From IMG/VR virus record IMGVR_UViG_3300017739_000018, positions 1 through 50,025 of that record: a stretch of DNA of 50,025 bases; one strand, 5' to 3'. The notes under the pieces are model-generated. The model did no database searches. It was given only the letters and a program-made list of their open reading frames with translations, and had not been told where the DNA came from. Below, one piece after another: positions 7,035-46,977 of this stretch. Numbering within the stretch: the first letter of the stretch is position 1; the number at the start of each line of letters is the position of its first letter. Both the position numbers and the translations under genes were made by a program. This DNA is from a virus (lineage: Duplodnaviria > Caudoviricetes).

Positions 7035-7035
7035 A

Positions 7036-7550: not shown

Positions 7551-7609
7551 ATGGGTTTACCCCCGGCGGGTGTTGATGAGATCGTAAACTATGAAACTCT
7601 TTATGTCAA
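7551..7609 (-). promoter_or_regulatory. sigma70 promoter plus conserved downstream element (copy B)
   Basis: TTGACA(7609-7604)-17 bp-TACGAT(7586-7581), then CCCGCCGGGGGTAAACCCAT (7570-7551). Confidence 0.75.
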
Positions 7610-7630
7610 CACCCCGTAAGATGTTGACGT

Positions 7631-7652
7631 AAAGAAGGGGCCCAAAGGCCCC
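7631..7652 (-). terminator. Intrinsic terminator after the capsid operon
   Basis: GGGGCC-TTTG-GGCCCC followed by TTCTTT, just past the stop at 7660. Confidence 0.75.
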
Positions 7653-7659
7653 GACTTAT

Positions 7660-8082
7660 TTAGGCAAATGTTGCCGCAGTTTCGGCAGTGCCGAGTTCCG
7701 CGATAACAGCAAATACACGGACTTTACCGTCGAAAGTTGCTGTATTAGCAATCAAATCGATAGTGTCAGCCGCTGTGTATAGCTTCATTGTGCCTGCGGC
7801 ATTGTTGATTTCGTGCCCAGTGGCAGTGCCATCTAGAGCCGCAACGTATAGATCATCATCAGTATCGTCACCGAGGTCAAGAACTGGAGATCCAGTTGAT
7901 GCCACCGTAAGAACTTCAACGCCTGCCGCTAACACAAGAGTATTAGCTTTCATCTCTATTACTTCAACTGAGTCAGAAGTAGTCAAGCTGGTAGACGAGA
8001 AATCTAAAACGACTTCAACAATTTGAGGTTTAATGCCGAGGGGGACTCCCGCAACGGCACCAGTAACAGTATATGTAGCCAT
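7660..8082 (-). CDS. Minor capsid/decoration protein
   Basis: 140 aa, acidic and beta-rich, directly after the major capsid gene, GGGAG RBS. Confidence 0.6.
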   Translation of the reverse strand: MATYTVTGAVAGVPLGIKPQIVEVVLDFSSTSLTTSDSVEVIEMKANTLVLAAGVEVLTVASTGSPVLDLGDDTDDDLYVAALDGTATGHEINNAAGTMKLYTAADTIDLIANTATFDGKVRVFAVIAELGTAETAATFA

Positions 8083-8095
8083 TATTTAGTCTCCC

Positions 8096-9040
8096 TTAGT
8101 CAGTTTTAACAACGCCAACAGCCAACGCTTCTGGACGTAAAACTTTACGGCCGAATACGTGCAGACCACGAACGATGTCGCTAAATGTTTCAGTTGAACG
8201 AACAACTTCTGTTTTAGCGATGTGCGATGCAGTCGCTGTAGAAGACATGTGACCCGCGAGAACTACGAAGTCGTTTGTAGTGTCCTGTGAAGTGATAGTC
8301 ACAACGTCAGTACCAGAGTTGTTTAGTGCAGTTGTTTTGTAGCAGTTCATGCCAGCGATGTTGCCCTGCATAACGAGACCGTTACGAAGAGGTGAAGTCG
8401 CATCACCAGTGACCTGCACTTCAGCAAATTTAGCACCTGCTTTAAACAAGTTTTCCCAGAAAATAGGAGGTGCTACAAACCAACGATTTTCCTCAGGAAT
8501 TGAGTTATCATCCATTGCACGTGCAATTGCCAACATTAAGTTAACAGCGGCGTCTTCGTTGCCGGAACCAGTGATGTCAATAGGAGCTGACGCAGATCCA
8601 AAAGTAGCCGCGCCACCTGTAAGACCAGCACCATCAGCCATCGCTTGAAGGACGTTAGCATCGTACTTACGTTTCAAAGAGAACGCACCAGAAGATGTAG
8701 CCAACGCCTCAAAATTGACGTGTGACTGACGTTCTTCGATGTCGTCAATCTTGAACGCGAAAGCATTCGCTTGGTCAACAACCATTGTAATCTGATCGTC
8801 AGCGAGGTCTTGTGGATTGACCACAGCACCGCGTGAGTAAGAAGATACAGTGATTGTAGGTTCTTTGATAATGCGAACAGTATCGCCGAAGTTTTCAATT
8901 TCACCAGCGTAATCAGTGTTGGTGATATCTTCGACTACCGACGCACGACGGAAAAACTTCAGGACTTTCTGAGAAAAAATCTCAGGAGTAAAGTTCCCTG
9001 AAGGCAGGTTGTTATAACCTGATGCGCTATTAAAAGCCAT
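8096..9040 (-). CDS. Major capsid protein
   Basis: NLPSGNFTPEIFSQKVLKFFR, TNTDYAGEIENFGDTVRIIKEP, DIVRGLHVFGRKVLRPE; follows the scaffold gene. Confidence 0.92.
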   Translation of the reverse strand: MAFNSASGYNNLPSGNFTPEIFSQKVLKFFRRASVVEDITNTDYAGEIENFGDTVRIIKEPTITVSSYSRGAVVNPQDLADDQITMVVDQANAFAFKIDDIEERQSHVNFEALATSSGAFSLKRKYDANVLQAMADGAGLTGGAATFGSASAPIDITGSGNEDAAVNLMLAIARAMDDNSIPEENRWFVAPPIFWENLFKAGAKFAEVQVTGDATSPLRNGLVMQGNIAGMNCYKTTALNNSGTDVVTITSQDTTNDFVVLAGHMSSTATASHIAKTEVVRSTETFSDIVRGLHVFGRKVLRPEALAVGVVKTD

Positions 9041-9082
9041 GTTAATACCCTTCCTTATGAGATAGTTAGGTCGCTATTAAGA

Positions 9083-9970
9083 TTATGCTCTGTAATCGAT
9101 ACGGCCTTCTACTTTCGCGGCGTCAATCTCAGCTTCGAGTTTTTCAAATTGCCACGGTTTTAGCCTACCGATTTCTGAAGCCTTCCAGATCTTCTTATCT
9201 GTTGGAGCTTCGTCAGCCACATCTTTCGCAGTTGAGCGTGTAACTGCGGCGGCTGGGTCTTCATTTTTTGCGGATTTGCGTTTTTTAGTAGTTAAACCCA
9301 TGTCTGATTTATATAGGTCTACTACCCTTGATGCCCAGACTGCATCCGTGTTGTTCTTGTAAATTCCGTCTGAGATAGATTCAGGTTGCTCGTCGAGCCA
9401 CATTAAAAACTTCTCATCAGTTTTCAAGTCATTAAAGTCCGGATGCTTTGCTAGCAGTTCTTTATACGCTGATTGAATTTTAAGATTTTTCTCTTTACCT
9501 TTTAAAGAGTCAACCTCTTCTTTTAATTCTTTTAGCTTGTTTTCTGCTTGCAAAGAAGAAACTGTTTCTACGATTGCATAAACATCCGGATACTTTGCTT
9601 TAAACTCCTCCAAGTCTTCTGGAGTTTTGGGAAGTTCTGAAGCTGACAGTCCGCTGTCTTTGCCCGCTTGTCTAGCTTCTGCAAGTTCTTGTCGTTCTTG
9701 CTTCCACTCTTCAAGTTTTGTATCGTAGTGACGTTTTAAATCGTCGTATCGTTTCTTGTAGTCTGTGTCAGAACCTTCTTTTGGTTCTGCGAAGCTAGTT
9801 TCTTGCTTAGGAGTAGCCTCTTCTTCTTGCGAGGGGTCCTGTGCTTCTACTGTTTCGTCTTCATCTTGGTAAACTTCTTCTCGATATTTTCCACGATATA
9901 ATTTATCGTTATTGATTGTTCCGAAAGAATCGTTTGCCTTATTTGCGCGATGTCCGCGTGATTTTGCCAT
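9083..9970 (-). CDS. Capsid scaffolding protein
   Basis: Acidic coiled coil, DYKKRYDDLKRHYD, C-terminal EIDAAKVEGRI; immediately upstream of the capsid gene. Confidence 0.8.
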   Translation of the reverse strand: MAKSRGHRANKANDSFGTINNDKLYRGKYREEVYQDEDETVEAQDPSQEEEATPKQETSFAEPKEGSDTDYKKRYDDLKRHYDTKLEEWKQERQELAEARQAGKDSGLSASELPKTPEDLEEFKAKYPDVYAIVETVSSLQAENKLKELKEEVDSLKGKEKNLKIQSAYKELLAKHPDFNDLKTDEKFLMWLDEQPESISDGIYKNNTDAVWASRVVDLYKSDMGLTTKKRKSAKNEDPAAAVTRSTAKDVADEAPTDKKIWKASEIGRLKPWQFEKLEAEIDAAKVEGRIDYRA

Positions 9971-9984
9971 TTTAGTCTCCTATC

Positions 9985-10053
9985 TCACGGGGCCTCATGG
10001 CTGAGGGTAGCCGTAGTGTATTCACGGGGCCTGCGGGATTGCAGGGTAGCCGT
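9985..10053 (-). promoter_or_regulatory. Two tandem hairpins in the scaffold-gene leader
   Basis: ACGGCTAC-CCTGCA-ATCC-CGCAGG-CCCCGTGA and ACGGCTAC-CCTCA-GCCA-TGAGG-CCCCGTGA. Confidence 0.7.
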
Positions 10054-12177
10054 TTAAGACCTTAAAAACCCAGTTGGATTACTTACTTTGTATTTGTCCG
10101 GGTTCTTTTCTGTATACTTGATGTAAGGGCGTGGAGATATGTCCCTATCATCGTAATTTGAGTATTCTGATTTGTTAAAGTAATCAAACTGTTCTCTAGC
10201 TGATCTATCTGAATTCATTAAAGCGTTTGACATCATTTCGTTATAAAATTCTTTTTCATAGCCTTTGGCAATTCTAGGGGCTATTTCGTTTAAGTACGCT
10301 GAAAATTTAAGAAGAGAGTCCCCAGTAAAAAGGGCGTTTTCTTCGTTAGGATCATCATATATACGGGCACTGTCATCTCTAAACTTTTTGAGAAGGCCGC
10401 CAAACTGCTCAATTTCTCTGTCAGACAGATTGGGGTTAAAGTCTGCATCTTTAGGCGTTTTACCACCTTTAGCCATTTTTCCGCCATCATAAGCTACCAG
10501 CATCCCTTCCGAAGGATTTTGTGGCTGTTCATCGAGTGCTTCAGCTTCGGGGCTTTGGCCGTTCTCTTCGACACGTTCTTCAACTTCCGCTTTGCCGCGA
10601 TTGTTGATCTTATTTAATCTGTCGTAGCCGATGATCTCAGCAAGCAAAGGAGGAATTACAACCTCACCCTCTGAGACTAATAAAGATACAGCATTCTCTC
10701 TGTCTATTTTATTCTCATCTCCAGAAATGTCAACACCTTGGCGTCTTGCTTCATCTATAGCCTGAAGAATCATTTTTTTAATGTCTTCTGATCCGGCGAA
10801 CTCGACTGCGGCCGCGTTAATAATAAACGTACCTTCTTCAACGTCGAGAGGAACGTCATCAGCAACGGTTTTACTCTCTGGTAAATTTTCTGGTTTTTTC
10901 TTGCCCACAAACCCGACAGGGCCGTCACCCGAAGGCTGTCCTTGGGGTTGTCCCACTTGCATACCTTCTTGAACCCGCAGGGGGCGGTCGGCGAGGTCCA
11001 GCACCGCTTGGTTGTAAGCATACATTTCTTGTAGTTCAACAGAAGATCCCGCTTTCATAGGGTTCTTCATAAATGCTTCGGGGTTTTTCTTCACAGCAAC
11101 AGGGTCAAACATAGGACGAGGTTTCGCAGACATCATCTTGTCCATCTGAGAATCGTACGCCGTTCCACCGTTTGCTTTCTTTTTAACTTCACCACCTTCT
11201 TTGAAGAGGGAATCAAATGCGCTGTCAACCATTTCATATGCACTCGGATAAATAGAAGGGCCTACTGCTCGCATAAAGAGAGGACGAAGAGACGACCTGA
11301 AAGGCCGTGTAGCGGCTAATGCAAGAGGATTTGCTCTTGTTACTGCTTGTGCGTACTCGGGGTCGCCGCCTCCTAACTCTCTTCGTGCTTCCATCGCTTC
11401 TCGTGCCGCAATTATTTGAGACTCTCTCGCTTGCGGTGATAACAAAGAAGCACTTTCTCCAAAAGCTGTAGATGCGTAAGCGTAGTCCATTGCCCCTTGT
11501 TCGCGTCCAGTAATATCCGTCGCAAGAGCTCTATCTACTTTTGCTCCTCCGGGAACAGCCATTCCAATGACATTTCCAACAAAATCAGTAAACTCAAAGT
11601 CGTCAAATACTTTTCCGATGTACCCCTCACCTGCCGGCGAAACAATATAGTCTCGAGTTACGCTCGTACCAAAACGGGATGCAACGCCTTCCGCAAGGTT
11701 AGTTCCAAGCTTTTGTAAACTGCCGCTAAGACCTTCTTCATATGATGGAATTTTTGACTGAAGTTCTGATTCGAGCTCGTCAAATCCAATCGCTCCTGCT
11801 AAGAATGCGGCCTCTTCTGCACCGACACGAGAACCTCGAGGATCAAAGTTCATAACTTCCATGTCAGCGTTAAGCACCGTGTAATCTCTTATGGAGTTAG
11901 CCCAGTTACCTCGATTAGCTTTTTCGTAGGCAACGTCTAGACGATCAAACAGGTCAGAGATGCGGTCGAGCTCATCCATTTGCTCATCTTGTCTATCCGC
12001 ACCTTCGCCAACAATTCCCATATTAATGTCAACTTCAGCACCAGAACCCCCACGACCGCCGCCTCCACCGCCATCATTTTGGTCATTACTTCCACCGGAA
12101 TAGCCCATCGCTTCATTGAAAGAATCATCAAAATCTCCTGCGGAACCCCCACCACTACCTGTATTAAAGTTAGCCAT
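10054..12177 (-). CDS. Internal virion protein, 707 aa, with duplicated DDVP..EG.(F/V)(I/V) module
   Basis: ADDVPLDVEEGTFIINAAAV and LLVSEGEVVIPP...RLNKINNRG; low-complexity N-terminus; lies between portal and scaffold. Confidence 0.55.
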   Translation of the reverse strand: MANFNTGSGGGSAGDFDDSFNEAMGYSGGSNDQNDGGGGGGRGGSGAEVDINMGIVGEGADRQDEQMDELDRISDLFDRLDVAYEKANRGNWANSIRDYTVLNADMEVMNFDPRGSRVGAEEAAFLAGAIGFDELESELQSKIPSYEEGLSGSLQKLGTNLAEGVASRFGTSVTRDYIVSPAGEGYIGKVFDDFEFTDFVGNVIGMAVPGGAKVDRALATDITGREQGAMDYAYASTAFGESASLLSPQARESQIIAAREAMEARRELGGGDPEYAQAVTRANPLALAATRPFRSSLRPLFMRAVGPSIYPSAYEMVDSAFDSLFKEGGEVKKKANGGTAYDSQMDKMMSAKPRPMFDPVAVKKNPEAFMKNPMKAGSSVELQEMYAYNQAVLDLADRPLRVQEGMQVGQPQGQPSGDGPVGFVGKKKPENLPESKTVADDVPLDVEEGTFIINAAAVEFAGSEDIKKMILQAIDEARRQGVDISGDENKIDRENAVSLLVSEGEVVIPPLLAEIIGYDRLNKINNRGKAEVEERVEENGQSPEAEALDEQPQNPSEGMLVAYDGGKMAKGGKTPKDADFNPNLSDREIEQFGGLLKKFRDDSARIYDDPNEENALFTGDSLLKFSAYLNEIAPRIAKGYEKEFYNEMMSNALMNSDRSAREQFDYFNKSEYSNYDDRDISPRPYIKYTEKNPDKYKVSNPTGFLRS

Positions 12178-12183
12178 TTGCTA

Positions 12184-12411
12184 TTATTTCTCCGCGTCTA
12201 CCACTGCTTGGTGGTTAGATTTGAGGTTCAGGAGGGTTTCCAGTAAAACCATCTTCCCCTGCAACTGGAACATTTCCCGTTCCGATTGTGCCGTCACCAA
12301 CCCCCGAAGCGTCACTTGGTGGAGGTCCATCAGGTAATTGGTCAGGGCTTCCCATGCCTGCGGGTGGTGCACTAGCGGGCCCACCTTCTGGGCCTGTTCC
12401 TTGTTGAGCAT
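12184..12411 (-). CDS. Small helical protein overlapping the portal 3' end
   Basis: AAGGA RBS then MLNKEQAQKVGPLV...AWEAL...MFQLQGK; typical of post-portal small genes. Confidence 0.65.
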   Translation of the reverse strand: MLNKEQAQKVGPLVHHPQAWEALTNYLMDLHQVTLRGLVTAQSEREMFQLQGKMVLLETLLNLKSNHQAVVDAEK

Positions 12412-14311
12412 TTTGAAGTCCTTGTAGTACTTTTGCGTAGAGTTGTGCTTCATTTACATCATTTACCAGCTCTTCCGGATCAATGTCCTGAGAGATTGCC
12501 AATTCTTTGACAAGATTGGGTAATTTAATAAACGGTGCGAGCATTGGATTCGCAACCGTCTGGAGAAGCGTTGTAAGCCTCTGTGAGCGAACTTCTTTTT
12601 GCATGACGGCCGAGGTACCCCGAGGCTTAATACTTAGATCTCCGACGATATCAGGGGCCTTCTCGTTGTACTGCATATTCCATTGAAAGTATGCTTCACC
12701 AAGCGGTTTAAGAAGATAGTCATCAATGTTTTTGATAACAGTTTTTACGGACATCGTTCCGGCACTCATTAACATAGACAACCCAGAAGACGTTCTACCT
12801 GTACCTGTAACACCCGTTTGTCCGTGCAAAACGCTCGGGATGCCAGTTTCTTCATCTGAAAGCTGACGAGCAATTTGATACATTTGAATGTTTTCAGGTG
12901 CAGTATTAGGAAATTTAAGCCCGTTGATTGCTGTGCCTGTTACCCCCGACTGGCGTCTGAACACTTTACCGGGAAAGATTTCAAAGTTTTGTCCGGGAAC
13001 AAGAGATGCTTCGTCCACATCAAAAACAAGGTTGCCCGCTAATGCTAAGTTGTCAATCGCCATACGAACATGACCGTTCATAAGCATTTGGGCATCTTCC
13101 ATGTTTTCCGCAACGCCAACGCCCCAAATCTGGTAGGGGTTAACTTCATACGGAAAGCAGTGGTATGGAATTCGAGCGGGAGTAAAAGGATTGAGCACAC
13201 AACGTAAAACTTCAGTGCCACAGACCCACGCGTTAATTTGTACTTGATCTAACTCTGAAACAGTCTCAGGTAAATCCATCCCGACTTCACGAGCAAGTTT
13301 AGCATCTAAAACACCCCAATACTCAAACAATTCAAAACGGTTTTCTTGATAGTATGGCTCCGTATCGTCTTCTCTGATCGTATCTTCATAATACTTGTCT
13401 TCGTAGTTGGGTCCTTTTAAAAGTGTGTTTTCTATTGCCGTCGCGTTAAAGAATGGACGATTCATCAAATTACGAATTTGTTGGCGATTCATCCTATGAC
13501 GTTGAATTACATATTCACAATCTTCAAGACTTGTAGCTGAAGGGTCCGGATGGAAGTCCCAAGCTGAAACATGTTCAAGACGAGGAACTAAGTCCTCAGT
13601 AGGGTTGTACACACGTTGTCCGTCTTCGCCACGTTCCCAACTGTGAATGCGCTTGTAATGATTAAACGGTCCTTTTACAATCCCCGTACCGAGAAGGCAC
13701 GACTCAAAGATAGCGTTACGTAATACATTGACCGCGTTTGTGTCCAAAAGCTGGTCGTGAATATGCTTTTCTAACGCACGTGCCGCCTCAGCCGCTGGAG
13801 AAAACTGGGGCTCTCCTACTAGCGACGGGCCTGCTGAGAGCTGATCCGCCATTTTTTGGTACTTGCCGAAATTAACCTCAGTAGCACCGGGTTCTAAATC
13901 TAGCCCATCACCAGCAAAACCAAAAGGACTTTGTAATTCATCCGCAGGTGTTTTAAGGTGTGCAAACTCCACGATACCGTCAGGCACAGGAGTGTGTTCA
14001 ACTACGATTGGAAACTTTTTGTTCACAAACAAAATGTCTACAATTTGACCGTATGCCGCTAAAACTTTAGTCTTCGTGATTTTAATAAAGACTTTAGATC
14101 TTTCAGAGTCACGATACTGTGTAGACGAGTCGTAGATTCCACGGAAGTTTTTGTACGCTTGAAGCCACCGCTGTTCAAATGTACGACGTCCATTTTCCGA
14201 ATCTTGAAAACGATTATGGATATAGCCTGCTAGCCCCGGCATTTGTTCGTCAACATCGAGAACCTCGACCTGACCGTCATCCGGAGCTTGAAGGAAGCCC
14301 TCTTCAGCCAT
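12215..14311 (-). CDS. Portal protein
   Basis: RSKVFIKITKTKVLAAYGQI, GTGIVKGPF, WGVGVAENMEDAQ; downstream of terL. Confidence 0.9.
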   Translation of the reverse strand: MAEEGFLQAPDDGQVEVLDVDEQMPGLAGYIHNRFQDSENGRRTFEQRWLQAYKNFRGIYDSSTQYRDSERSKVFIKITKTKVLAAYGQIVDILFVNKKFPIVVEHTPVPDGIVEFAHLKTPADELQSPFGFAGDGLDLEPGATEVNFGKYQKMADQLSAGPSLVGEPQFSPAAEAARALEKHIHDQLLDTNAVNVLRNAIFESCLLGTGIVKGPFNHYKRIHSWERGEDGQRVYNPTEDLVPRLEHVSAWDFHPDPSATSLEDCEYVIQRHRMNRQQIRNLMNRPFFNATAIENTLLKGPNYEDKYYEDTIREDDTEPYYQENRFELFEYWGVLDAKLAREVGMDLPETVSELDQVQINAWVCGTEVLRCVLNPFTPARIPYHCFPYEVNPYQIWGVGVAENMEDAQMLMNGHVRMAIDNLALAGNLVFDVDEASLVPGQNFEIFPGKVFRRQSGVTGTAINGLKFPNTAPENIQMYQIARQLSDEETGIPSVLHGQTGVTGTGRTSSGLSMLMSAGTMSVKTVIKNIDDYLLKPLGEAYFQWNMQYNEKAPDIVGDLSIKPRGTSAVMQKEVRSQRLTTLLQTVANPMLAPFIKLPNLVKELAISQDIDPEELVNDVNEAQLYAKVLQGLQNAQQGTGPEGGPASAPPAGMGSPDQLPDGPPPSDASGVGDGTIGTGNVPVAGEDGFTGNPPEPQI

Positions 14312-14325
14312 AGTAATCTACCTTG

Positions 14326-14523
14326 TTAGCCGTATAAGGAAGTATCGTCTGCCATTGTGAACAGAGAAGCATCTACCGTTGTTTTAGTTTGAACTTTAGG
14401 TGCGTCTTCTGTTAGAACGTCAGTTTTTGCTTGCGTATCAAACTCCAGACCTTCACGATAGAGATTAGTTTCTCCAACATTAGTATCTACAGTTTGTTTA
14501 TCTGAGTTCATAATATCTTTCAT
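14326..14523 (-). CDS. Small acidic protein, 65 aa
   Basis: GAGGAG RBS before MKDIMNSDKQ; the longer track start overlaps the upstream gene. Confidence 0.6.
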   Translation of the reverse strand: MKDIMNSDKQTVDTNVGETNLYREGLEFDTQAKTDVLTEDAPKVQTKTTVDASLFTMADDTSLYG

Positions 14524-14533
14524 TTTATTCTCC

Positions 14534-16270
14534 TCATTGGATTCCAAACATTCGGGACATCTGTCCCTCAATGTCGTCACGTAAGCCAGCTTCTTCGGCT
14601 TGTTCTTCAATTTCTTTTGCCACAGGTTCTAGCGCGGCTCCCATTACTTCTTTACCGACTTCGACACCTGCTTGCATTATTCCGACAGGACTTTCTTCGA
14701 GTATAAATTGTCCGGCCTGTTCTAATACAGAAGGTACGACGGGTTTTCCTTCTTCAATGTTTTTTTGAGCTTCAGCGACACGGGGCATAAGTGAAGCACC
14801 TATCAACGCAGTGCCTCCAACTGTAAGAGCTCCTTGAGCCATCTTGCCGCCATCAATATTGCGGAAGAAGTCCATGAGTGAACTCATGCCTTTTTTCATG
14901 TCGTCGTCTACGGTGACTTGTTTAGGAGCAGGAGCGGTTTCCGCTTGGATGCGAGCGCGTTCTTCTTTTTCAAACTGTTTGAGTTCTAATTCACGCGTGA
15001 TTTGCTGTCGATCAATGGCATCCTGCCCTTCAAGAAACTTTTGACCCTCTTCACTCTGTAAAAACTCAATTCGCTCTTTTTGCTTTTTAAGAGCATCACT
15101 TAAATAGTTTTCAGTTTTATTCTTAGCTTCTGCAACCTGTGCTTTTGCTAACTCTCTGCGCTCTTCTTCCGTAAGAGTCGAAGTAAAGTTTGAAGCGTCC
15201 TCTCCAAAACCCGCGAACTTATCACGGACACCGATTAAAAGGCTATCGGCAATCTTGCCCAGTCCTTCGACAGGCTTGAGTCCTGCGTAGTTTCTTGAAA
15301 GAATGGAAGAGTCGGTGTGACCCATCATTGCTTCGGTAACGTCCGTCGGATAACCGAGCTCGTCTCGAACGATTACTGACATAAACGAACGAGTAGCACT
15401 TGGGCTTGTTATAACGCCTTTAGAAGGGTCTTTTGCGTCAAACAGCGGTAAAAAATCTTCAAACCCTGCCAATAACCGTGGAGAAATAGTTGCACGGTAC
15501 GCTTTATCGTACGTACTTTGAGTCACGTCAAATAGCTTGTCACTAACGGAAGACTCATAGTTACGGATTACTAAATCCGCCATTGGTGATCCAATGGGAT
15601 ACTTTACTGCGGGGCGAGTTTTTTTACCTTTAGTTACGCTTTTAACAGTGACAAAATCGTCTGTGATAGTGACGTCGGACTTTTTAATTGCGCTGTTACC
15701 AATTAATTGTTCGGGGCGTTGAAAAGTCGCTTTGTGGTACAGAGCTAAATCTGCAACTGCGTCTCCATATTGAGCCCGTATTTCAGGGACAGCTTCCGAA
15801 TATATCTTTTCAATATCGTCGTGCGGGATAGGCTTTTGCATGGGGCGTTCGCCCGCCAGATCAGTGCGCTGTGTACCTCCTGATAGACTTCCCGACCCTT
15901 TACCCCCTGTAATGAGAGGATAAACCCTAATTTCACCTACTCCACCGGGACCGGGCACTGTTAGATTAAGTAAACCGGATTCCTCAAGAATTGGTCGAAT
16001 GTTTGTTTCTAAAGCTTGGAAATTACTGTACTTGTTGGCGGTTTTGTTTACATCCTTACCTAAACGAGACCAATTGTCTTGCTTCCGCATCTCAGCGAGC
16101 GTAATATCCGCAGGTAAACCTGTTTTGTCCCACGTATTACGGAGTGCACGTAGCTGTTTAAAGTGGTTTTCAGTCGTAGTAGGCTTTGCCATCGCGTAGT
16201 CGATAGCTTCACGGACTGTAAGCGTTTGGTCTGCGGCCTTTTCTACAAATTCTTCGTACGATAGTGGCAT
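14534..16270 (-). CDS. Tyrosine recombinase-fold protein with C-terminal coiled-coil and hydrophobic extension
   Basis: Ordered motifs ATFQRPEQL (R), TKGKKTR (K), SPSATRSF (R; His of HxxR replaced), MMGHTD (H), SRNYAG (Y). Confidence 0.72.
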   Translation of the reverse strand: MPLSYEEFVEKAADQTLTVREAIDYAMAKPTTTENHFKQLRALRNTWDKTGLPADITLAEMRKQDNWSRLGKDVNKTANKYSNFQALETNIRPILEESGLLNLTVPGPGGVGEIRVYPLITGGKGSGSLSGGTQRTDLAGERPMQKPIPHDDIEKIYSEAVPEIRAQYGDAVADLALYHKATFQRPEQLIGNSAIKKSDVTITDDFVTVKSVTKGKKTRPAVKYPIGSPMADLVIRNYESSVSDKLFDVTQSTYDKAYRATISPRLLAGFEDFLPLFDAKDPSKGVITSPSATRSFMSVIVRDELGYPTDVTEAMMGHTDSSILSRNYAGLKPVEGLGKIADSLLIGVRDKFAGFGEDASNFTSTLTEEERRELAKAQVAEAKNKTENYLSDALKKQKERIEFLQSEEGQKFLEGQDAIDRQQITRELELKQFEKEERARIQAETAPAPKQVTVDDDMKKGMSSLMDFFRNIDGGKMAQGALTVGGTALIGASLMPRVAEAQKNIEEGKPVVPSVLEQAGQFILEESPVGIMQAGVEVGKEVMGAALEPVAKEIEEQAEEAGLRDDIEGQMSRMFGIQ

Positions 16271-17974
16271 TTAGTATCCGAATGTTGAATCTTGGGGTTT
16301 AAATGTGCTATTCTTAATGTCGTTAAGTGTTTTGTGGATAGAGACGTACCCAGATGTACGGGTCATTAACATGTAGCGGAGCGCGTCGTACGCATGGTCT
16401 TCCGCTTTTGTGTCGACGTCTTCAGAATTTGTTTTTGACAGGGGGATACCCGCTAACTGTTTTATTATGTTTGTGCACGTGTTAAAAAATTTAACTGTAG
16501 GCTCTCCGGTAAATTCATTGTCACCTAATCTACGGTGTATTTCCATTTTACCGGATATTCTGTTACTATCAGATGGAGTCCAACGGCAACCGCCACGGAT
16601 CATTGTCTCTGCAATAGACGGGCCGTATCCTGTACGATTCCAACAGGATTTATCGAGCACAACGTAATGAGGATTAGGGTCCCACTCCTCTAATTCTATT
16701 ATTTTAGCGGCTAGTTGCTCTGCTGTAAAGTGTTTTACGTAAAGTTCTCGATAGACCCATATGTTGTTGTCCCAATCGATTGCACCCCAGAGTACGCACG
16801 AAGGGCTTGCATAACCGTAGTCAGCGGCACGGATTCTTGGCCAGTTGGTTGGTAGTTCGAAAGGATCAACGCAGTGCTTAATCTTGTTAAACTCTGGGAA
16901 AGCACAACCTTCTGCAACATCCCAGTCTCCGTCGAGTAGACGCTTTCGCTCCACTTCTGGTAAGGAGAGGAGCATTGCTTCGTATTGGCCGTCCCGCATA
17001 AGGTACGGGTTGTCTGTAAGTCTGGCTGGGACGAATTTTCTCCAGTACAGCGGCTGGCCTGCCTTCTCATGTCCCTCAGGGTATACATATGGCTTTCCTG
17101 ACTCGATATCGGCGGGAACGAATGGCTTACCGGGGTTTCCTTGGTCGATGTACATCTTTTTGACCCACCAGCCTCCGACACCGCCGGGGTTGGCTGTACA
17201 CCGCATTGAGAGATTTTTCGAGAGCTCTGAGTCGGTTGAACGGAGACGTGACCGTAGGTAGTCCCATACGTAGGAGGTGGGATACTGGGTAATTTCATCG
17301 ATTGCTATCCAATTGAAGGCTTGTCCCTGATATCGGGTAACGTCTTTGTCTTTGTCAAGATAACTAAACCAGATAGTGGCCCCCGACGGGAAATGCCATG
17401 TGGATTTAGACTCTCTAAAGGAGGCACCGGGAAACGCCTTGGGATAAAGTTGTTTAGATTTGGAGATGAGTTCAGTCAATTCATCCAGAGTGCGACGGAG
17501 TAATAAACCACGATGACTAGGATTATGGCAATAACGGAGAGGATCTGCCAAGAGAGCGAAACTTTTTCCTCCACCAGCCGCACCGCCGTATAATACATCT
17601 TGTTCAGGTGCTGACAGAAAGTCTTCTTGTGGTCCATCATTCGGTTTGAATACAACTTCAGATTCTCCCACAAGCTTTTTAACTGCGTCTGGTAAGGCAT
17701 TTAAGTCTCCTACATCAATTACTCGTGAATTTTTACCTTGTAGTGCCGTTTCTACTTTTGATGCGGCTTTTTCTCGCACGGATGCACGATATGCTTGTTT
17801 CTTAGCCGCTTCTCTTTTCTTTTCAGCTTCTTTTTTTGATCTTCTTATCGAAGCTTGTGTCGCTCTACGCGCTTTTTCCGCAGTAGAGAGGTGATAACGG
17901 GCTTTGGGCGCGTTCGGGTCTTTTTTTGGACGACCACGGGCACGTTTTGGAGCTTCTGCGACCTCATCCGTCAT
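16271..17974 (-). CDS. terL: Terminase large subunit
   Basis: Walker A YGGAAGGGKS, Walker B IAIDE, TANPGG, nuclease motifs DYG and EDHAYDALRY. Confidence 0.95.
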   Translation of the reverse strand: MTDEVAEAPKRARGRPKKDPNAPKARYHLSTAEKARRATQASIRRSKKEAEKKREAAKKQAYRASVREKAASKVETALQGKNSRVIDVGDLNALPDAVKKLVGESEVVFKPNDGPQEDFLSAPEQDVLYGGAAGGGKSFALLADPLRYCHNPSHRGLLLRRTLDELTELISKSKQLYPKAFPGASFRESKSTWHFPSGATIWFSYLDKDKDVTRYQGQAFNWIAIDEITQYPTSYVWDYLRSRLRSTDSELSKNLSMRCTANPGGVGGWWVKKMYIDQGNPGKPFVPADIESGKPYVYPEGHEKAGQPLYWRKFVPARLTDNPYLMRDGQYEAMLLSLPEVERKRLLDGDWDVAEGCAFPEFNKIKHCVDPFELPTNWPRIRAADYGYASPSCVLWGAIDWDNNIWVYRELYVKHFTAEQLAAKIIELEEWDPNPHYVVLDKSCWNRTGYGPSIAETMIRGGCRWTPSDSNRISGKMEIHRRLGDNEFTGEPTVKFFNTCTNIIKQLAGIPLSKTNSEDVDTKAEDHAYDALRYMLMTRTSGYVSIHKTLNDIKNSTFKPQDSTFGY

Positions 17975-18371
17975 GCTCTACAACCATTTCTTTTTTCGGG
18001 GGGAGTAATACCACCCCATGTATAGCTTGGATGTTGACATTGTGAGTCTCTTGTTTCCCCAAGCCGACTCTATTGAGCAAACTCTCGGCCGCTTGGAGAC
18101 GTATGTTATCTCCACGCTCGATTTCTGGTGCATCAATGGTCTGGACAAGCTTATTAGCGGCTTTGAGAGCACCACCTGCAAGAATATTCCGTGCTCCTTC
18201 GATAATTTCGTCGGCAAGAGACTCTTTAAGGTGTCCGATGGAACCCTGCGAGTAACCTGACACTTCACAGGCACGTGAGAAGTTACCTCCGTTCTCGAAG
18301 AGTGCGGTAAGAAAAGCTTGTTGTTTGTCGGATAACTCACGTTTTTTCCGTTGTTGAGGAAGGAGATTCAT
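17964..18371 (-). CDS. terS: Terminase small subunit
   Basis: LSDKQQAFL..L...GGN...ACEVSGYS HTH and C-terminal VVLLPPK; directly upstream of terL. Confidence 0.75.
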   Translation of the reverse strand: MNLLPQQRKKRELSDKQQAFLTALFENGGNFSRACEVSGYSQGSIGHLKESLADEIIEGARNILAGGALKAANKLVQTIDAPEIERGDNIRLQAAESLLNRVGLGKQETHNVNIQAIHGVVLLPPKKEMVVEHDG

Positions 18372-18487
18372 GAAAATCACATATATATGTTAAAAAAAGC
18401 GTACGAAGGGGCTTGTGGTCGCGGAACTTTGTTCACATGGACTATAAAAGTTGATTTCCCTTGCCATTTTGGCCCCGGTACAGAGTT

Positions 18488-18517
18488 ATTATGGGCAACA
18501 ACCGTTTAATTTGTCAA
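18488..18517 (-). promoter_or_regulatory. sigma70 promoter for the terminase/structural arm
   Basis: TTGACA-18 bp-CATAAT on the minus strand, divergent from the promoter at 18542. Confidence 0.6.
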
Positions 18518-18541
18518 CAAAAAAAATATTTTATGTAGCTA

Positions 18542-18600
18542 TTGACGAAATGAAATCTGAACAGTACAATGGGATTGTAAGCCCGCCGGGGTAAACCCAT
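18542..18600 (+). promoter_or_regulatory. sigma70 promoter plus conserved downstream element (copy A)
   Basis: TTGACG-17 bp-TACAAT, then CCCGCCGGGGTAAACCCAT at 18582-18600. Confidence 0.78.
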
Positions 18601-18660
18601 ACAATACCCGCAGGTCAACCCCAGAACCCTGACAGTACCCTCTGCTGTCGGGGTTTTTTT
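18577..18660 (+). ncRNA. Candidate ~85-nt small RNA
   Basis: Bounded by a near-consensus promoter and an intrinsic terminator; contains no ATG-started ORF. Confidence 0.55.
18625..18660 (+). terminator. Intrinsic terminator
   Basis: AACCCTGACAG / CTGTCGGGGTT stem followed by a T run. Confidence 0.8.
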
Positions 18661-19054
18661 GTATCCAGTTTGCTCATCCATTGGATTACCAACGGTAAGC
18701 CGTCGTGTGAAACACTCCGTGAAACATAATACCCAAAACTACAAAAAATATGGGGAGATTGCTAGCAATAGTGCCACCACCCCCCGTGTCCCTTGCCCTG
18801 CCACCATTGGGGTCCTTTTATTTTAACATCACTGATCTTTCGGTTTTACCCTTGGGTCGTTCCTTCGGTCTCCCGTTGGGTAACCCCCAAAGGTTTTAAT
18901 GGCTCAACGCGTAGAAATTTCGGTAAAGGCGTTGACCCTTTTCAAATCGGTTTTCAAAATGGCCCCCGTCGATGGGCGGTTATATAGCCCCAGTGGACAC
19001 CTTAAAAAACCTTTAGATGTACTGGCGGTAAGTACTTAGGTATTTTTCTGGGAC

Positions 19055-19080
19055 AAAAAAAGGCCCCCGTAGTGGGGGCC
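19055..19080 (-). terminator. Intrinsic terminator of the early minus-strand cluster
   Basis: GGCCCCC-ACTAC-GGGGGCC then TTTTTTT on the minus strand. Confidence 0.85.
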
Positions 19081-19135
19081 AAAAAGCCGGCGGGATAATC
19101 TGAGAATGGAAACTCAGCACCGGCTCGAGGGAATA

Positions 19136-19348
19136 TTATAGACTCACGTCAGACGTACCGACTAGCGCGAGTGTTTCCAGCTTATTGAGGACGTTGGCAA
19201 GATTGCGAGCAAAAAGGATGCGCTCGTCAGACACATACGTGCTGATCTTGTTGTCGTCACCGCGAGTCGCCCAACCCACTTGATCAATCAAACGCTTTAG
19301 TTCGGCAAGTTGAGCAGGCGTAAAGTTCAAAGTTGTTTCGGTTTTCAT
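19136..19348 (-). CDS. Hypothetical early protein, 70 aa
   Basis: AAGGGG RBS and ATGA overlap with the upstream gene. Confidence 0.6.
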   Translation of the reverse strand: MKTETTLNFTPAQLAELKRLIDQVGWATRGDDNKISTYVSDERILFARNLANVLNKLETLALVGTSDVSL

Positions 19349-19764
19349 AGTGTTCCCCTTAAGGTTTTGAAGTCGTTATTTTCCCTGACCCCTTCGGCCA
19401 GTGAGAACAATGTAATACGTCCCTTTCGAGATTGCAAATTTGCGAGCCCATGATGTTTCACAATGTGGGTGTACTGTGCGATTGTTTCCGGCTTAACTCC
19501 CAAGATCCCAGCAATGTGCTGGCGGTGCATCGTGCCGTAATGCGAGAGTAGTGCAAGCATACGGTAATGTGTCGAACGTATTTTTCGATCATCGGCGGTA
19601 CGCTTCTGGTCGGCCTCAAGCAACTCATCGGCCGATATCACCTCGCCGTCCATCTCATTTTTGAGATCGTCCAGTTGAGACGAGAGAGTCTCAATCTGGC
19701 TAGCGAGGGTTGAAAGTGCTTCGCGATGGTTCGCAAGTTCAGTGCTGAATGTTTTTGTGTTCAT
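19345..19764 (-). CDS. Coiled-coil plus C-terminal HTH DNA-binding protein
   Basis: Likely start MNTKTF; MHRQHIAGILGVKPETIAQY is HTH-like. Confidence 0.6.
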   Translation of the reverse strand: MNTKTFSTELANHREALSTLASQIETLSSQLDDLKNEMDGEVISADELLEADQKRTADDRKIRSTHYRMLALLSHYGTMHRQHIAGILGVKPETIAQYTHIVKHHGLANLQSRKGRITLFSLAEGVRENNDFKTLRGTL

Positions 19765-19846
19765 AATTTTCATCCTATTAATTTCGATATAATAATAAGT
19801 AAAACCAATACCCAAAGTAATCGCCACAAATTGGCTATTAGTTCGG

Positions 19847-20851
19847 TCATGCGGCCAACTCCAGTGATTGCCATTGTGGCGACTCGAGAACGGTGCGAAC
19901 TTTTGCTTCCCGTTGAAGTCGTACTCGGTGAGGATTCGACGAACCACGACTGGTCGATAGTTCGGTGATTGTGCCGTCATCGTTCTCGCGCTCCCATGTT
20001 TCATCGACGTGAGTCGCCCAATGTGTAAGGGCATTGTAAGCACCCCACAATGTCGGGCCCAACTCCCGCTGTTCCTCTTGGAATCGATGGTTGAGATAAT
20101 CGAGCAAACGGCCGTTAACTCGTGTGTTTTTGTCGGTCGAAAGTTGCGAGGCCTCGCCTCCTTTCTTGCACACTGTATTTTCGAGAACCTCAACCCACTG
20201 GGACCGATCTAATTCGATGGTTCTCCACTTCTGCATCTGGTCGCGGTGAGCATGAAACATACCAAGGCCTAGCGTAGATTTAGCAATCATCGCAGAGACC
20301 GACAGATTAGAGGTGTGTTTTCGTTTCTGGTGGTAAGCCTTCTGACCCCCAAACACCATCGTATTACGGCAGTAATCGCGGTAAGCACCGGAGAACACCT
20401 GAAACGCCCACGACATGTCGACGCTGTTAATAATGTCGGCGCGGGCCGTGATTCCTTCCCCCCTGCCGTCAATGTCGAAAGTGAGATCGTTGAAATAAAC
20501 TGCTCGAGTGGCGCGGCGGCCTTCGTCGAAAATCCGGTCGACTACGGTGAAATTATCGTGGGGTAACGATGGGTTCTCGAGTATCGATTTCGCTTGCTCG
20601 AGGAACGCCAGTGAATGATCCACAAGCTTATAGGATTTAGAGACCGGCGGTGACGCCAGTAGCTTTTGCGTGTTGCTGTTTCGGAGTGCGTAGTATCCCT
20701 CGACAAGATTCCGGTCGCGGTCGTAAATCGCCTCCTTTTGGACAGATCCAAGTTCACTAAAAAAGTCGACGTCAAGCGGGTTGCTGTGCGTGAACTCCAA
20801 ACCGTCTTGGATACGCTGAGCGGTGCGCTCTGGGTTAACTGCAATATTCAT
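19847..20851 (-). CDS. DUF932-like phage/plasmid protein
   Basis: AAGGAGG RBS before MNIAVNPER; INSVDMSWAFQVFSGAYRDYCRNTM...KRKHT matches the family pattern. Confidence 0.7.
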   Translation of the reverse strand: MNIAVNPERTAQRIQDGLEFTHSNPLDVDFFSELGSVQKEAIYDRDRNLVEGYYALRNSNTQKLLASPPVSKSYKLVDHSLAFLEQAKSILENPSLPHDNFTVVDRIFDEGRRATRAVYFNDLTFDIDGRGEGITARADIINSVDMSWAFQVFSGAYRDYCRNTMVFGGQKAYHQKRKHTSNLSVSAMIAKSTLGLGMFHAHRDQMQKWRTIELDRSQWVEVLENTVCKKGGEASQLSTDKNTRVNGRLLDYLNHRFQEEQRELGPTLWGAYNALTHWATHVDETWERENDDGTITELSTSRGSSNPHRVRLQREAKVRTVLESPQWQSLELAA

Positions 20852-20873
20852 GGCTAAAAGCCTCCTTAGTAAT

Positions 20874-20947
20874 TGGACACAGCGAGGGGAATCGAACCCC
20901 TGTAAACAGATTTGCAGTCTGTCGCCTAACCAGTCGGCCACGCTGTG
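20874..20947 (-). tRNA. tRNA-Cys (GCA), 74 nt, CCA encoded
   Basis: Acceptor CACAGCG/CGCTGTG, D arm GCCG..AGGC, anticodon arm ACAGA-CTGCAAA-TCTGT, T arm AGGGG-TTCGATT-CCCCT, U73 then CCA. Confidence 0.93.
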
Positions 20948-20983
20948 TCGGTATCCGGTCGGCCAATCCGATCCGGTAAAGTC

Positions 20984-20992
20984 ATTATAGCA
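20984..20992 (-). promoter_or_regulatory. Extended -10 promoter upstream of the tRNA
   Basis: TGcTATAAT on the minus strand about 37 nt before the tRNA 5' end. Confidence 0.6.
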
Positions 20993-21227
20993 CGGAACAA
21001 AAGAACCATAACAAGAAACCAAGCAAAAAAGTTTCTGTCAAAGAAGTGAATCCAACGACGCGATCAAATCGCGGGCGAGGGACCTCGTCGGGCTTTAAAG
21101 AGAATTTAGAAACGGCACAATATTTCCCATAACCTACGCGCCCAAAATGAGGAGTTGACCTTTTTTGTTGCTGATTTCGATTCGCATCCATGCCCAAAAT
21201 GATGCGGTGACCTTTTTTGGTCTGCAT
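20985..21227 (-). CDS. Hypothetical basic protein
   Basis: GGGAG RBS before MQTKKGH; fills the gap after the Gp88-like gene. Confidence 0.45.
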   Translation of the reverse strand: MQTKKGHRIILGMDANRNQQQKRSTPHFGRVGYGKYCAVSKFSLKPDEVPRPRFDRVVGFTSLTETFLLGFLLWFFCSVL

Positions 21228-21242
21228 TTGAATTCACTCCCG

Positions 21243-21911
21243 TTAGTGCGTCTTAAAAATGATGTTCTTGTCGGGCGCGTCCCAACAAAGAGCGCAAGTT
21301 GTGCAAGCTTGTGTTTTCCTTTCCTGTTCTGGGCAAACAATACCATCACTAGTTAGCTCCTCACTGTTGGCACTAAACGTCCCACAAGTGTCGGACCATC
21401 GTACAGCCCATCGTTCGGGAAAACCGTTACGGTTCGTTTGTAGCTCGTGGTAGATTTGCAGGTCATCGGACGGAGTAACATGCGTATACCCCCACACATA
21501 AAGATTCTGGTGTAATACCAAAAGTTTACGCCAGAGTTCCACATACTCTGCGCTATAGAAATCCCCAAGAACGTGCAACCGCACCAGTACTTTGCGTTTC
21601 TTTTCTCGCGCTTTAGTACAAATCTCTTTTACCTCCCTAATCAATCGCGCCTCAAGTTCTCTCCCGTGTTCCAACCGATGGGCGAACGGCATATTGTCAC
21701 CGTAACAGTCATCCCAGTGATGGCAAGAAGTTGGGCACGTCTCCCGTTCAGTTAGCGTCAAGGTATACACCTCCGCACCTTTCAACTTACCTTTTTTTAC
21801 GTGCCGTCCTGCACCTCCTATTTTCGCGCTTGATGGCTTCTTTAAGACGGAGTGCGAGTATCCCGTCAAGCTTTTTTTGCTTTTTTGGTAACGTGTTGTT
21901 GTGAGGTGCAT
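21243..21911 (-). CDS. Gp88-like Cys-rich putative Fe-S protein
   Basis: TCPTSC..WDDCYG, VRLHVLGDFYS, WGYT and C-terminal CPEQ...CTTCALCW. Confidence 0.65.
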   Translation of the reverse strand: MHLTTTRYQKSKKSLTGYSHSVLKKPSSAKIGGAGRHVKKGKLKGAEVYTLTLTERETCPTSCHHWDDCYGDNMPFAHRLEHGRELEARLIREVKEICTKAREKKRKVLVRLHVLGDFYSAEYVELWRKLLVLHQNLYVWGYTHVTPSDDLQIYHELQTNRNGFPERWAVRWSDTCGTFSANSEELTSDGIVCPEQERKTQACTTCALCWDAPDKNIIFKTH

Positions 21912-22002
21912 TGTTTGTTTCTCCAGTAAGAGTAATTGGTCTTTCGTCGTTTGCTCTCCAGTCTGCTAAGGCTTCTGGATGACATATTGTTTTCGGCTTC
22001 AT
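21787..22002 (-). CDS. Hypothetical early protein
   Basis: Start MKPKTICHP in ATGA overlap; overlaps the next gene by about 125 nt. Confidence 0.4.
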   Translation of the reverse strand: MKPKTICHPEALADWRANDERPITLTGETNNAPHNNTLPKKQKKLDGILALRLKEAIKRENRRCRTARKKR

Positions 22003-22202
22003 TTTCGTTCCCTGTATATAGCTAACATATCTTGCGCACACCGTAAATGTGACATAGCGTTATCTAGGTCGCTTGATTCGGTATCACCAGTGTCATGCAA
22101 GATGGTGATAGCTTCGGTTATTAAGTTAAAACATTGCGTCAATTGTTTATCCACTAACGCATCGACTCGTACCTTGTTTTCATTCCTACTTGTTACGATC
22201 AT
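21999..22202 (-). CDS. Hypothetical early protein
   Basis: AAGGT RBS; operon packing. Confidence 0.55.
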   Translation of the reverse strand: MIVTSRNENKVRVDALVDKQLTQCFNLITEAITILHDTGDTESSDLDNAMSHLRCAQDMLAIYRERK

Positions 22203-22389
22203 TTTTACCTTTCCTTAATATGTATAGCTCCTGTAAAGCTTCACGGGGCGTTTCACTAAATACCGAATCACCTCCCGTCTCTGCTTTAAAATTTGTGGAA
22301 TATAAAGAGTTAAAACATTGAACATTGACACAATCACGAAACATAAAGTTAAGTAATGTTGTGTCGGAAATTTGCTTTGCGTTTTTCAC
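22186..22389 (-). CDS. Hypothetical early protein
   Basis: AAGGAGG RBS before a GTG start. Confidence 0.55.
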   Translation of the reverse strand: MKNAKQISDTTLLNFMFRDCVNVQCFNSLYSTNFKAETGGDSVFSETPREALQELYILRKGKNDRNK

Positions 22390-22708
22390 TGTGTGGGGCC
22401 TCCTTTACTGGTTTTTGCTCAATGGTATCGTGGTACTCAATCCAAGACGCGAGATATTCGTCATCGCTAGTCACGCCATAAGCTTTATCGATAACCATAA
22501 CATCACACCAAGGATACTTGTCACATACGCAATCCAAAACCTGATCTTTTGTTTCCGCAAAAACACTTACAACAAAAAACCGGCAAGGTTCAAAGGGCGG
22601 GTACTCTGTATCCTGATCCAGTAAAATGCAACGGAACCTAAACGATACCGGCCCAATTCTATTTTCCGCAAAGTGCACCTTTTTAGTGCGGTAATTTTCT
22701 GAAATCAT
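22349..22708 (-). CDS. Hypothetical early protein
   Basis: GAGGTG RBS before MISENY, ATGA overlap. Confidence 0.55.
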   Translation of the reverse strand: MISENYRTKKVHFAENRIGPVSFRFRCILLDQDTEYPPFEPCRFFVVSVFAETKDQVLDCVCDKYPWCDVMVIDKAYGVTSDDEYLASWIEYHDTIEQKPVKEAPHSEKRKANFRHNIT

Positions 22709-22965
22709 CCCAGCACCTCGCTCTGCGAATCCCAATTGAGATCATCAACAATAACCTGTTCCTTTGTCTCAATCCACACTCTCGCGCCACAAGCTAATGG
22801 CTTATCTGGAGAATACACAAGCTTGCTAGGCCCGTTAATTCTTACACCAAAACCTTTCGTATTACTCCGACTTGTCTTTACAGTAACAACCGGCCTGAGA
22901 TCGTCGGGATTCTTTGCGTTATGTCGTATGTTGTGCTGATTAATGTGTATGCGTTTAATTGTCAT
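22705..22965 (-). CDS. Conserved hypothetical phage protein
   Basis: KRIHINQHNIR...YSPDKPLACGARVWIET pattern; GGAGG RBS. Confidence 0.65.
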   Translation of the reverse strand: MTIKRIHINQHNIRHNAKNPDDLRPVVTVKTSRSNTKGFGVRINGPSKLVYSPDKPLACGARVWIETKEQVIVDDLNWDSQSEVLG

Positions 22966-23161
22966 ATTCATTGGCCTCCACTTTAATGATCTCACCTAGA
23001 TGACAATCGTCACCATCAGTCACGTCAATTACTGCAGAAAAATCATTTTGCTTAATTTGATCGACGGCGTTCTGCAAACTACTTGCTTCCACAGTGTACG
23101 CTCGTTCAATCACAACCTCCCTAGTAACAATAAACTCTCCACAATCTTTTTTAACTCTCAC
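22955..23161 (-). CDS. Hypothetical early protein, first of the cluster
   Basis: GGGAG RBS before a GTG start. Confidence 0.55.
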   Translation of the reverse strand: MRVKKDCGEFIVTREVVIERAYTVEASSLQNAVDQIKQNDFSAVIDVTDGDDCHLGEIIKVEANEYDN

Positions 23162-23283
23162 GGAAACTCCCCCCCGTCTTATGAATGAATCCCGACAGTA
23201 TCGAACTCTTATTGTGTGTTGTATTAGACCTTGGTCGTACGGATAGTTTTATTTACGCAAACAAAGATGTAGCGGGCTGTGGT

Positions 23284-23342
23284 GTGGGCGTACCCCCGGC
23301 AGGGGTTGATCGGACTGTATCATGAATTTTATTGGCCATCAA
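23284..23342 (-). promoter_or_regulatory. sigma70-like promoter plus conserved downstream element (copy C)
   Basis: TTGATG-17 bp-TACAGT, then CCTGCCGGGGGTACGCCCAC. Confidence 0.65.
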
Positions 23343-23343
23343 C

Positions 23344-23399
23344 AAAAAGGAGGTTGACCTTTTTCTTTGCTGTTTTGAAAAAAGGAGGTTGACCTTTTT
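23344..23399. repeat. Perfect 21-bp direct repeat, 35-bp period
   Basis: AAAAAGGAGGTTGACCTTTTT at 23344-23364 and 23379-23399. Confidence 0.9.
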
Positions 23400-23445
23400 T
23401 ATGGTTGACTCTAATCTTGCCCCGTACCAATTAGAGGCTATGCCC

Positions 23446-35114: not shown

Positions 35115-35117
35115 CAT
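35089..35117 (+). promoter_or_regulatory. sigma70 promoter
   Basis: TTGACG-17 bp-TAACAT. Confidence 0.65.
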
Positions 35118-46975: not shown

Positions 46976-46977
46976 TT

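Follow-up and report, generated by a model that had tools for sequence, protein, structure and literature searches.

A short GC-rich block follows three sigma70-type promoters in the IMG/VR virus record IMGVR_UViG_3300017739_000018, and the same block is kept behind promoters in uncultured relatives of this phage. The whole record, positions 1-50,025, was analyzed and is called the window here. Judged by its gene content, the window phage is a podovirus of the HMO-2011 type. The conserved core of the block is its 5' part, which consists of a C-run, GCC and a G-run of three to five bases, followed by TA and AT-rich sequence. We regard the block as a promoter-proximal leader or initial-transcribed element, which the comparisons below support well as a conserved feature and whose function we infer. 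Our preferred reading, held tentatively and with less than even confidence, is that the block is a shared 5' leader module working at the RNA level, by loading ribosomes or protecting the 5' end.

Site A lies on the plus strand. Its promoter (TTGACG-17 bp-TACAAT, 18542-18570, with the -35 box at 18542-18547 and the -10 box at 18565-18570) is followed after 11 nt by element copy A at 18582-18600, in which C-run, GCC, G-run and TA occupy 18582-18593. An intrinsic terminator comes next at 18623-18663 (more narrowly, 18623-18657) and is made of 15 pairs and a T-run. This unit has no open reading frame (ORF), and its predicted RNA has a length of about 85 nt here, while those of relatives reach about 105 nt. 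Sites B and C are on the minus strand. Promoter B (TTGACA-17 bp-TACGAT, 7609-7581; -35 at 7609-7604, -10 at 7586-7581) leads after 10 nt to copy B at 7570-7551, which abuts the ATG at 7550-7548. This is the start of ORF 7320-7550, which encodes a 76-aa basic protein and stands ahead of lysozyme, adaptor and virion/tail genes. Promoter C (TTGATG-17 bp-TACAGT, 23342-23314; -35 at 23342-23337, -10 at 23319-23314) leads, also after 10 nt, to copy C at 23303-23284 and then to an untranslated leader of about 120 nt (23283-23162) that is partly conserved in relatives. A small ORF after copy C was rejected since its frame is not conserved, and no conserved reading frame was seen in this leader (both by eye, in three sequences only). 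Operon C contains small ORFs, a tRNA-Cys and a helix-turn-helix (HTH) gene and closes at the minus-strand terminator 19080-19062.

An earlier note on this DNA had described the three promoters with their 17-bp spacers, the gaps of 10-11 nt and the element coordinates, and all of these were recovered. It had also assigned A to a short non-coding unit, B to a basic-protein, lysis and tail operon and C to the early cluster, and these roles hold, with a terminator closing unit A. Its statement that the element ends exactly 30 nt after the -10 box is correct for all three copies in this genome, but in relatives the start of the G-run varies between 15 and 19 nt past the -10 box (32 distinct variants, mostly 16-17 nt). 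B and C also have common bases between the -10 box and the block; copy A shares none there. The sequence downstream of the element is not common to A, B and C.

A degenerate pattern for the core, searched on both strands, matches the window exactly three times, compared with 0.00 matches expected from 100 dinucleotide shuffles. A weight matrix was derived from 51 distinct sites in relatives, counting the three of the window. It gave copies B, A and C scores of 23.1, 22.4 and 14.1 bits, and the next-best place in the window reached 7.4. The best scores of 50 shuffled windows had a mean of 5.9 and a maximum of 12.9.

The block in related phages

The exact motif was found in 14 other viral contigs, and it follows a promoter in 14/14. 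A looser motif was found at no fewer than 119 loci. Among the 126 matches examined, which include the earlier loci and the window, 26 have a strict promoter and 4 a promoter with a weaker -35 box, and the rest are unrelated GC-rich coding DNA.

Further loci were fetched without the element as bait, using the -35/spacer of promoter B, the terminator of unit A or the TerL gene. The -35/spacer alone gave 48 loci. The block is present in 23 of them and one is cut by a contig end; the remaining 24 lack the shared surroundings and look like chance hits to an AT-rich pattern. All 15 loci fetched by the unit A terminator alone carry both promoter and block. TerL gave 80 loci at 73-93% identity, and 42 of these have at least 1300 nt upstream. 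A promoter with a C-run/G-run block lies upstream of terS, on the strand opposite to TerL, in 42/42 (41 by pattern and 1 as a one-base variant), while the same pattern on the TerL strand was found in 0/42. In type-A units, all relatives keep the -35 box, the -10 box and the 17-bp spacing unchanged, and the spacer sequence varies. Because the spacer and the downstream RNA diverge while the block stays, selection acts on the block itself.

The arrangement of the sites is conserved as well. In two related records, one 99% complete and one partial, sites C, A and B occur in the same order as in the window, spaced by about 4.6 kb and then about 12 kb. A distant record, 96% complete, keeps the A unit and a diverged site-B-type copy. 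Relatives of the promoter C site were found among the searched loci. At site B, a terminator hairpin lies 5' of the promoter (7652-7637, minus strand), and relatives share the sequence between this hairpin and the -35 box, which makes it part of a conserved terminator-promoter-leader cassette.

Bacterial and archaeal genomes, searched with one genome per species, gave 31 matches, none of them behind a promoter. A host or prophage origin of the block was therefore rejected. The element is absent from CRP-207 and HMO-2011, the only two cultured HMO-2011-type phages searched. Each has one match to the loose pattern, inside an annotated gene, and their gene order in the terS region differs. Thus the search for the motif in HMO-2011-type genomes that the note had proposed found it conserved, linked to promoters and near a set position, but not in these two phages. 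On the evidence of these comparisons, the block is a property of one uncultured subgroup of HMO-2011-type podoviruses and is under selection.

Conserved bases and folding

Variants were defined by the nine bases before the G-run together with the run length, which gave 32 distinct forms. The base five positions before the G-run is C in 32/32, and C also occupies the two positions adjoining the run, in 31/32 and 29/32. The base four positions before the run is C in 25/32 and T in 7/32. The G-run is three to five bases long in 32/32 and never shorter than three.

The 3' end of the element is much less constant. The note had drawn a GGG-N4-CCC hairpin with changes confined to the loop, and this did not survive comparison as a conserved feature. 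The 3' CCC is replaced by AT-rich sequence in many relatives, including many site-B-type copies. Across 33 type-A sequences, 68.7% of cells pair in this hairpin compared with a shuffle mean of 70.1%, and the middle pair is open in 17/33. RNAalifold, run unguided, instead proposed a 3-bp helix between the C-run and the G-run, with a three-base loop and an energy of -1.45 kcal/mol. This helix pairs in 94.9% of cells, and the 12 changed cells that still pair are all C to U. Selection seems to be on a sequence, with any hairpin being marginal.

Rfam was searched with the whole window at gathering thresholds and returned only the tRNA-Cys. With an E-value of up to 5 and 3 kb around each site, two weak matches appeared, far below gathering scores and on the other strand at the site A locus. 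The Rfam check suggested by the note thus found no family that matches the element. The two longer motif strings are absent from the full texts searched, and the 10-mer occurs there only in unrelated papers. No promoter or start-site study of HMO-2011-type phages was found in the literature searched, and PMC12753301 has no bearing on them.

A leader that may act on the RNA

In the reading that we favor, the three sites would be copies of one promoter-plus-leader module, with near-consensus sigma70-type promoters used by the host RNA polymerase. If transcription starts 7-9 nt past the -10 box, as assumed for such promoters, the block would lie at the very 5' end of the RNA, since the G-run begins 15-19 nt past the -10 box. 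It would then form the shared 5' end of three primary transcripts, spanning about +4 to +24. Its presence does not depend on what comes next, which is a small terminated RNA at A, a start codon at B and a leader of about 120 nt at C. G-runs can pair with the anti-Shine-Dalgarno end of 16S rRNA. For the first gene of operon B, the G-run would serve as the ribosome-binding site. In transcripts A and C, decay that depends on the 5' end may be blocked by a bound 30S subunit or by the small hairpin of C-run and G-run near that end. The module would thus be a high-expression leader, adding stability and translation to three of the genome's strongest promoters. The C-to-T asymmetry among the variants would keep a G-U pair in the sense RNA and fits a leader.

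The spacing at site B agrees with this. At 22 of the 23 site-B-type loci, an ATG lies 7-13 nt, mostly 8 nt, past the G-run and TA, and the 23rd locus has GTG. There is no other purine tract between the G-run and the start codon at these loci, so the G-run would have to act as the ribosome site there. By its position, at Shine-Dalgarno distance, it would be the only possible one. No start codon follows copies A and C. Ribosome sites elsewhere in the window are mostly of the GGAG type, with some G-runs, for example upstream of 22955-23161 and 19136-19348.

The first gene behind promoter B varies between phages and is drawn from a set of small, very basic proteins (23 related loci), so hairpin, promoter and leader form a mosaic cassette. 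Shuffled basic-protein genes were seen in the window at 6542-7550 (minus strand) and at loci L005, L023, L049, L084, L135, L140, L146 and L177.

Several observations weigh against a leader that acts on RNA. The start sites are predicted from promoter geometry, and a search for RNA runs containing the stretch listed none. Over their first 30 nt, the three predicted RNAs are no more stably folded than shuffled sequences (z = -0.32, +0.71 and -0.06), and the C-run/G-run helix has compensatory changes in 0 cells. The two C bases that would sit in its loop are nearly invariant, as would be expected of a sequence that is recognized, perhaps as DNA, more than of a simple hairpin. A Shine-Dalgarno role is not universal, since a separate AGGAG ribosome site is present in one distant copy of the site-B type, and the G-run is down to GGG in distant relatives. 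The block is not needed for strong expression as such, because other strong promoter-like sites, for example at 18517-18488 (minus strand) and at 35117 and 36322 (plus strand), lack it. An inverted repeat in type-A units, described below, is not explained by the leader model either. Of the options offered in the note, a 5' stabilizing structure is viable and a form of it is what we favor, with the qualification that the fold of the first 30 nt is unremarkable.

Among the nearest known parallels are 5' stabilizers. These come from E. coli and Bacillus genes, were shown by half-life assays, and include 5'-terminal stem-loops and the STAB-SD or polypurine stabilizers, one of them from a Bacillus phage early RNA. 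The block resembles them in being short and independent of what follows. It would likewise lie close to the 5' end, with a putatively ribosome-complementary purine run that need not start a gene. It differs in being known from sequence and in having a marginal hairpin, whereas the known cases have half-life assays.

The cassette at site B also recalls the PeSLs of T4-type phages. PeSLs are defined by a stem-loop and a promoter, are not known to have a conserved block past the start, and are many per genome; the module here occurs three times per genome and has a conserved block. The PeSL layout is found at site B only, and sites A and C are without it. The likeness of B to PeSL cassettes (PMC2839356, PMC4122927), in which a terminator hairpin and an early-type sigma70 promoter precede variable small genes, lies in the order of the hairpin at 7652-7637, the promoter at 7609-7581 and then a variable first gene (23 loci).

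HMO-2011-type phages are among the abundant marine viruses, and the module gives a handle on their transcription control, as one sequence marks early, late and small-RNA units. Should the block prove to raise stability or translation, an uncultured phage would have yielded a compact expression part. Should a factor read it instead, it would give a clue to how a phage without its own polymerase programs the host enzyme.

Alternative readings

The block may act on DNA instead, either as an initial-transcribed or downstream promoter element that sets escape and strength for the host RNA polymerase, or as an operator for a phage or host protein, at about +5 to +17, through which the three units are switched together. 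This is possible, and a DNA-level role is nearly as likely as an RNA leader. The block keeps within 15-19 nt of the -10 box, the sequence is conserved without a fold signal, and the near-invariant CC before the G-run is needed by no RNA helix. By inspection, the core is a 4+1+4 inverted repeat in most copies, a further inverted repeat covers the start site in type-A units, and the block was never seen without a promoter. Very strong host-polymerase promoters of coliphages T5 and T7 have conserved initial transcribed regions, which are purine- or AT-rich and act on promoter clearance. The likeness is that about the first 20 transcribed bases of a phage's strongest sigma70 promoters are conserved; the block differs from these regions in being a GC-rich C-run/G-run. 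Recognition of a GC-rich element at +8 to +12 by the sigma70 holoenzyme is not known to us, which counts against a promoter element. An operator has its own difficulties. C to T is tolerated and G to A never, which is unexpected for a symmetric dimer site, and one repressor that closes early, late and small-RNA units together fits no obvious program. Neither HTH candidate travels strictly with the block. The note had proposed the HTH proteins at 19345-19764 and 26829-27143 as operator partners, and the distribution of both among three related records with the element speaks against this. The GcrA-like gene 26829-27143 is absent from 3/3. The protein at 19345-19764 is clearly present in one (44% identity), weak in another and absent from the third.

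The inverted repeat of type-A units arises because the bases directly past the -10 box are complementary to the C-run. In the window it spans 18571-18584, over the predicted start, and a sigma70 start 7-9 nt past the -10 box would sit in its loop. The stems differ by lineage and a TA step is kept in the loop (L239, L246, L265, L237, L169). In a free shuffle test, the repeat did not reach significance in single sequences. Fisher p was 0.004 in an anchored test of 14 class representatives chosen by eye, and in a MAFFT alignment 9 cells are changed on both sides, a number reached by 40/500 shuffles. Support for the repeat is moderate. A different palindrome, formed in the window by the -10 box with the following bases, was rejected since by inspection it is not kept in relatives.

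Modification of the elongating RNA polymerase, by a pause or by processive antitermination on nascent RNA or the non-template strand, comparable to put, nut, qut or ops, is unlikely in our judgment. The block does head the long late operon and the early operon, and the lambda late promoter has a short terminated transcript that unit A resembles. The nut, qut and put sites are also promoter-proximal in phage operons; the difference is that there are three copies here, one of them directly before a conserved terminator. This terminator lies directly downstream in 15/15 loci, and unit A would terminate about 40 nt past its element. Terminator-like sites inside B and C are weak and no commoner than in shuffles. 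Pfam scans of 49 ORFs found no Q, N or NusG-type (NusG-like/KOW) domain and no RNA polymerase, with the limit that small N-type proteins are easily missed. ORFs 3-1250, 47457-48845, 46343-47442 and 48849-49959 were outside these domain scans. The note's remark that no phage RNA polymerase is visible was confirmed in the ORFs scanned. Its suggestion of put/nut/qut-like antitermination received little support, as there is no significant fold, no factor domain and no convincing intrinsic terminator inside B or C.

Comparison with the individual systems leads to the same view. The lambda nut site lies 3' of an early promoter, has a boxB hairpin with a 5-bp stem and a purine-rich pentaloop, and works with an N-type protein. 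The sole candidate hairpin here, the G-run with the downstream CCC, is the one that pairs no better than shuffles and is not conserved. HK022 put forms two stem-loops in about 70 nt of RNA and acts in cis on RNA polymerase. The block is short, about 13-20 nt, the 30-nt 5' segments fold with z between -0.32 and +0.71, and the sequence downstream of the block is not common to the three sites. Lambdoid qut combines a -10-like pause element in the initial transcribed region with a Q gene. The transcribed part of our units has no conserved TAnnnT pause box, the sixth base being C or A in the block, and none of the 49 ORFs matches the Q family. The ops signal of RfaH, as given in PMC5995543, has 12 nt, a C3:G8 pair, essential G4, G5, A7 and G8, and a TG pause step at 11-12. 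Like the block, it is a short leader signal that heads long operons and can stand in for a ribosome site, and in the same numbering G-run and TA match 6 of the first 7 bases of E. coli ops. The window copies, however, have G at position 3, A or C at position 8 and CC at positions 11-12, so the C3:G8 pair, G8 and the TG step that PMC5995543 shows to be essential are unmatched. The ops signal also lies further from its promoter than the block does.

A bolder proposal, which we hold equally unlikely, is that the block is a new promoter-coupled mark. It would be read in the first 20 nt or so, on nascent RNA or the non-template strand, by a phage or host factor, and would set the three units apart for special treatment, for instance resistance to termination, coupling to ribosomes or shut-off at a set time. 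Unit A would be a sensor or decoy, and the type-A inverted repeat would present the start site in the loop of a DNA hairpin. N4-type promoters have a DNA hairpin upstream of the start and depend on a virion RNA polymerase gene. The sites here differ from them in having -35 and -10 boxes with a fixed 17-bp spacer, in the lack of an RNA polymerase domain in the scans and in a type-A repeat that spans the start site.

More doubtful again is an RNA network in which the C-rich RNA of unit A tunes the translation or stability of transcripts B and C, either by base-pairing with the G-runs in their leaders or by competing with these leaders for a single factor. Past the block, the unit A RNA is C-rich and G-poor and ends in the conserved terminator. 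In the predicted fold of the window RNA, the G-run pairs with the downstream C-run. The whole predicted RNA has a folding z of -3.6, which is dominated by the terminator hairpin. An anti-Shine-Dalgarno-like tract of the CCCUCC type (GCUUACC...CCCUCC) occurs in the unit A RNAs of many relatives (L008, L014, L169, L218, L221, L229). However, this tract is shortened in the window's own copy, which is without most of it. The possible duplex in the window would have only 5-6 bp, and a sequence that is the same at three sites, rather than complementary, gives no pairing by itself.

The least probable reading is that the block has no function of its own and was carried by common descent and recombination on promoters duplicated from one cassette, as the bases common to B and C between -10 box and block and the mosaic site-B-type cassette, which precedes different genes like mobile promoter cassettes, might suggest, but spacer, discriminator and downstream RNA of type-A units have widely diverged while the block stays, and copy A keeps the block despite sharing nothing with B and C between it and the -10 box.

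Genome and neighboring features

The record is estimated to be 94% complete and has a G+C content of 44.8%. Scans of its ORFs recognized the TerL gene at 16271-17974 together with portal, major head protein and a virion amidase-like protein, and Pfam scans added lysozyme, an SU10-type adaptor, primase/helicase, a split family-A DNA polymerase, endonuclease I and ribonucleotide reductase. There is one tRNA-Cys. A 1710-aa virion protein gave only weak leads, toward ejection proteins. Among cultured phages, the closest by TerL (48-57% identity) are CRP roseophages, HTVC pelagiphages and HMO-2011, and a near-identity DNA search of phage records found no match to the window. CCGG is not avoided in the window (104 observed, 126.5 expected).

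Other promoters were noted in the window. The terS promoter (TTGACA-18 bp-CATAAT, 18517-18488, minus strand) stands back to back with promoter A. Its leader (region 18380-18517, minus strand) has its own sequence, which is kept in close relatives. This promoter was considered as a fourth copy of the module and rejected, since the leader contains a CCGGGG word but otherwise differs and scores as noise. Two further strong promoter-like sites without the block are on the plus strand. TTGACG-17 bp-TAACAT precedes nrdB (35089-35170; 35117), with a leader that is conserved in a related record, and TTGACT-17 bp-TACGAT lies at 36294-36322, before 36354.

Between the terminator of unit A and that of the early operon, about 400 nt (18660-19060) are non-coding and conserved with a related record. 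An 8-mer direct repeat lies within them at about 18706-18730, and the region may be an origin or packaging site. A long composite hairpin at 19086-19126, between gene 19136-19348 and the terminator at 19080-19062, is the fourth-best match to the weight matrix, at a non-significant score. Between promoter C and the primase gene, two 21-bp direct repeats were found at 23345-23402, and each is an inverted repeat around a TTGAC word, with GGAGG on the plus strand.

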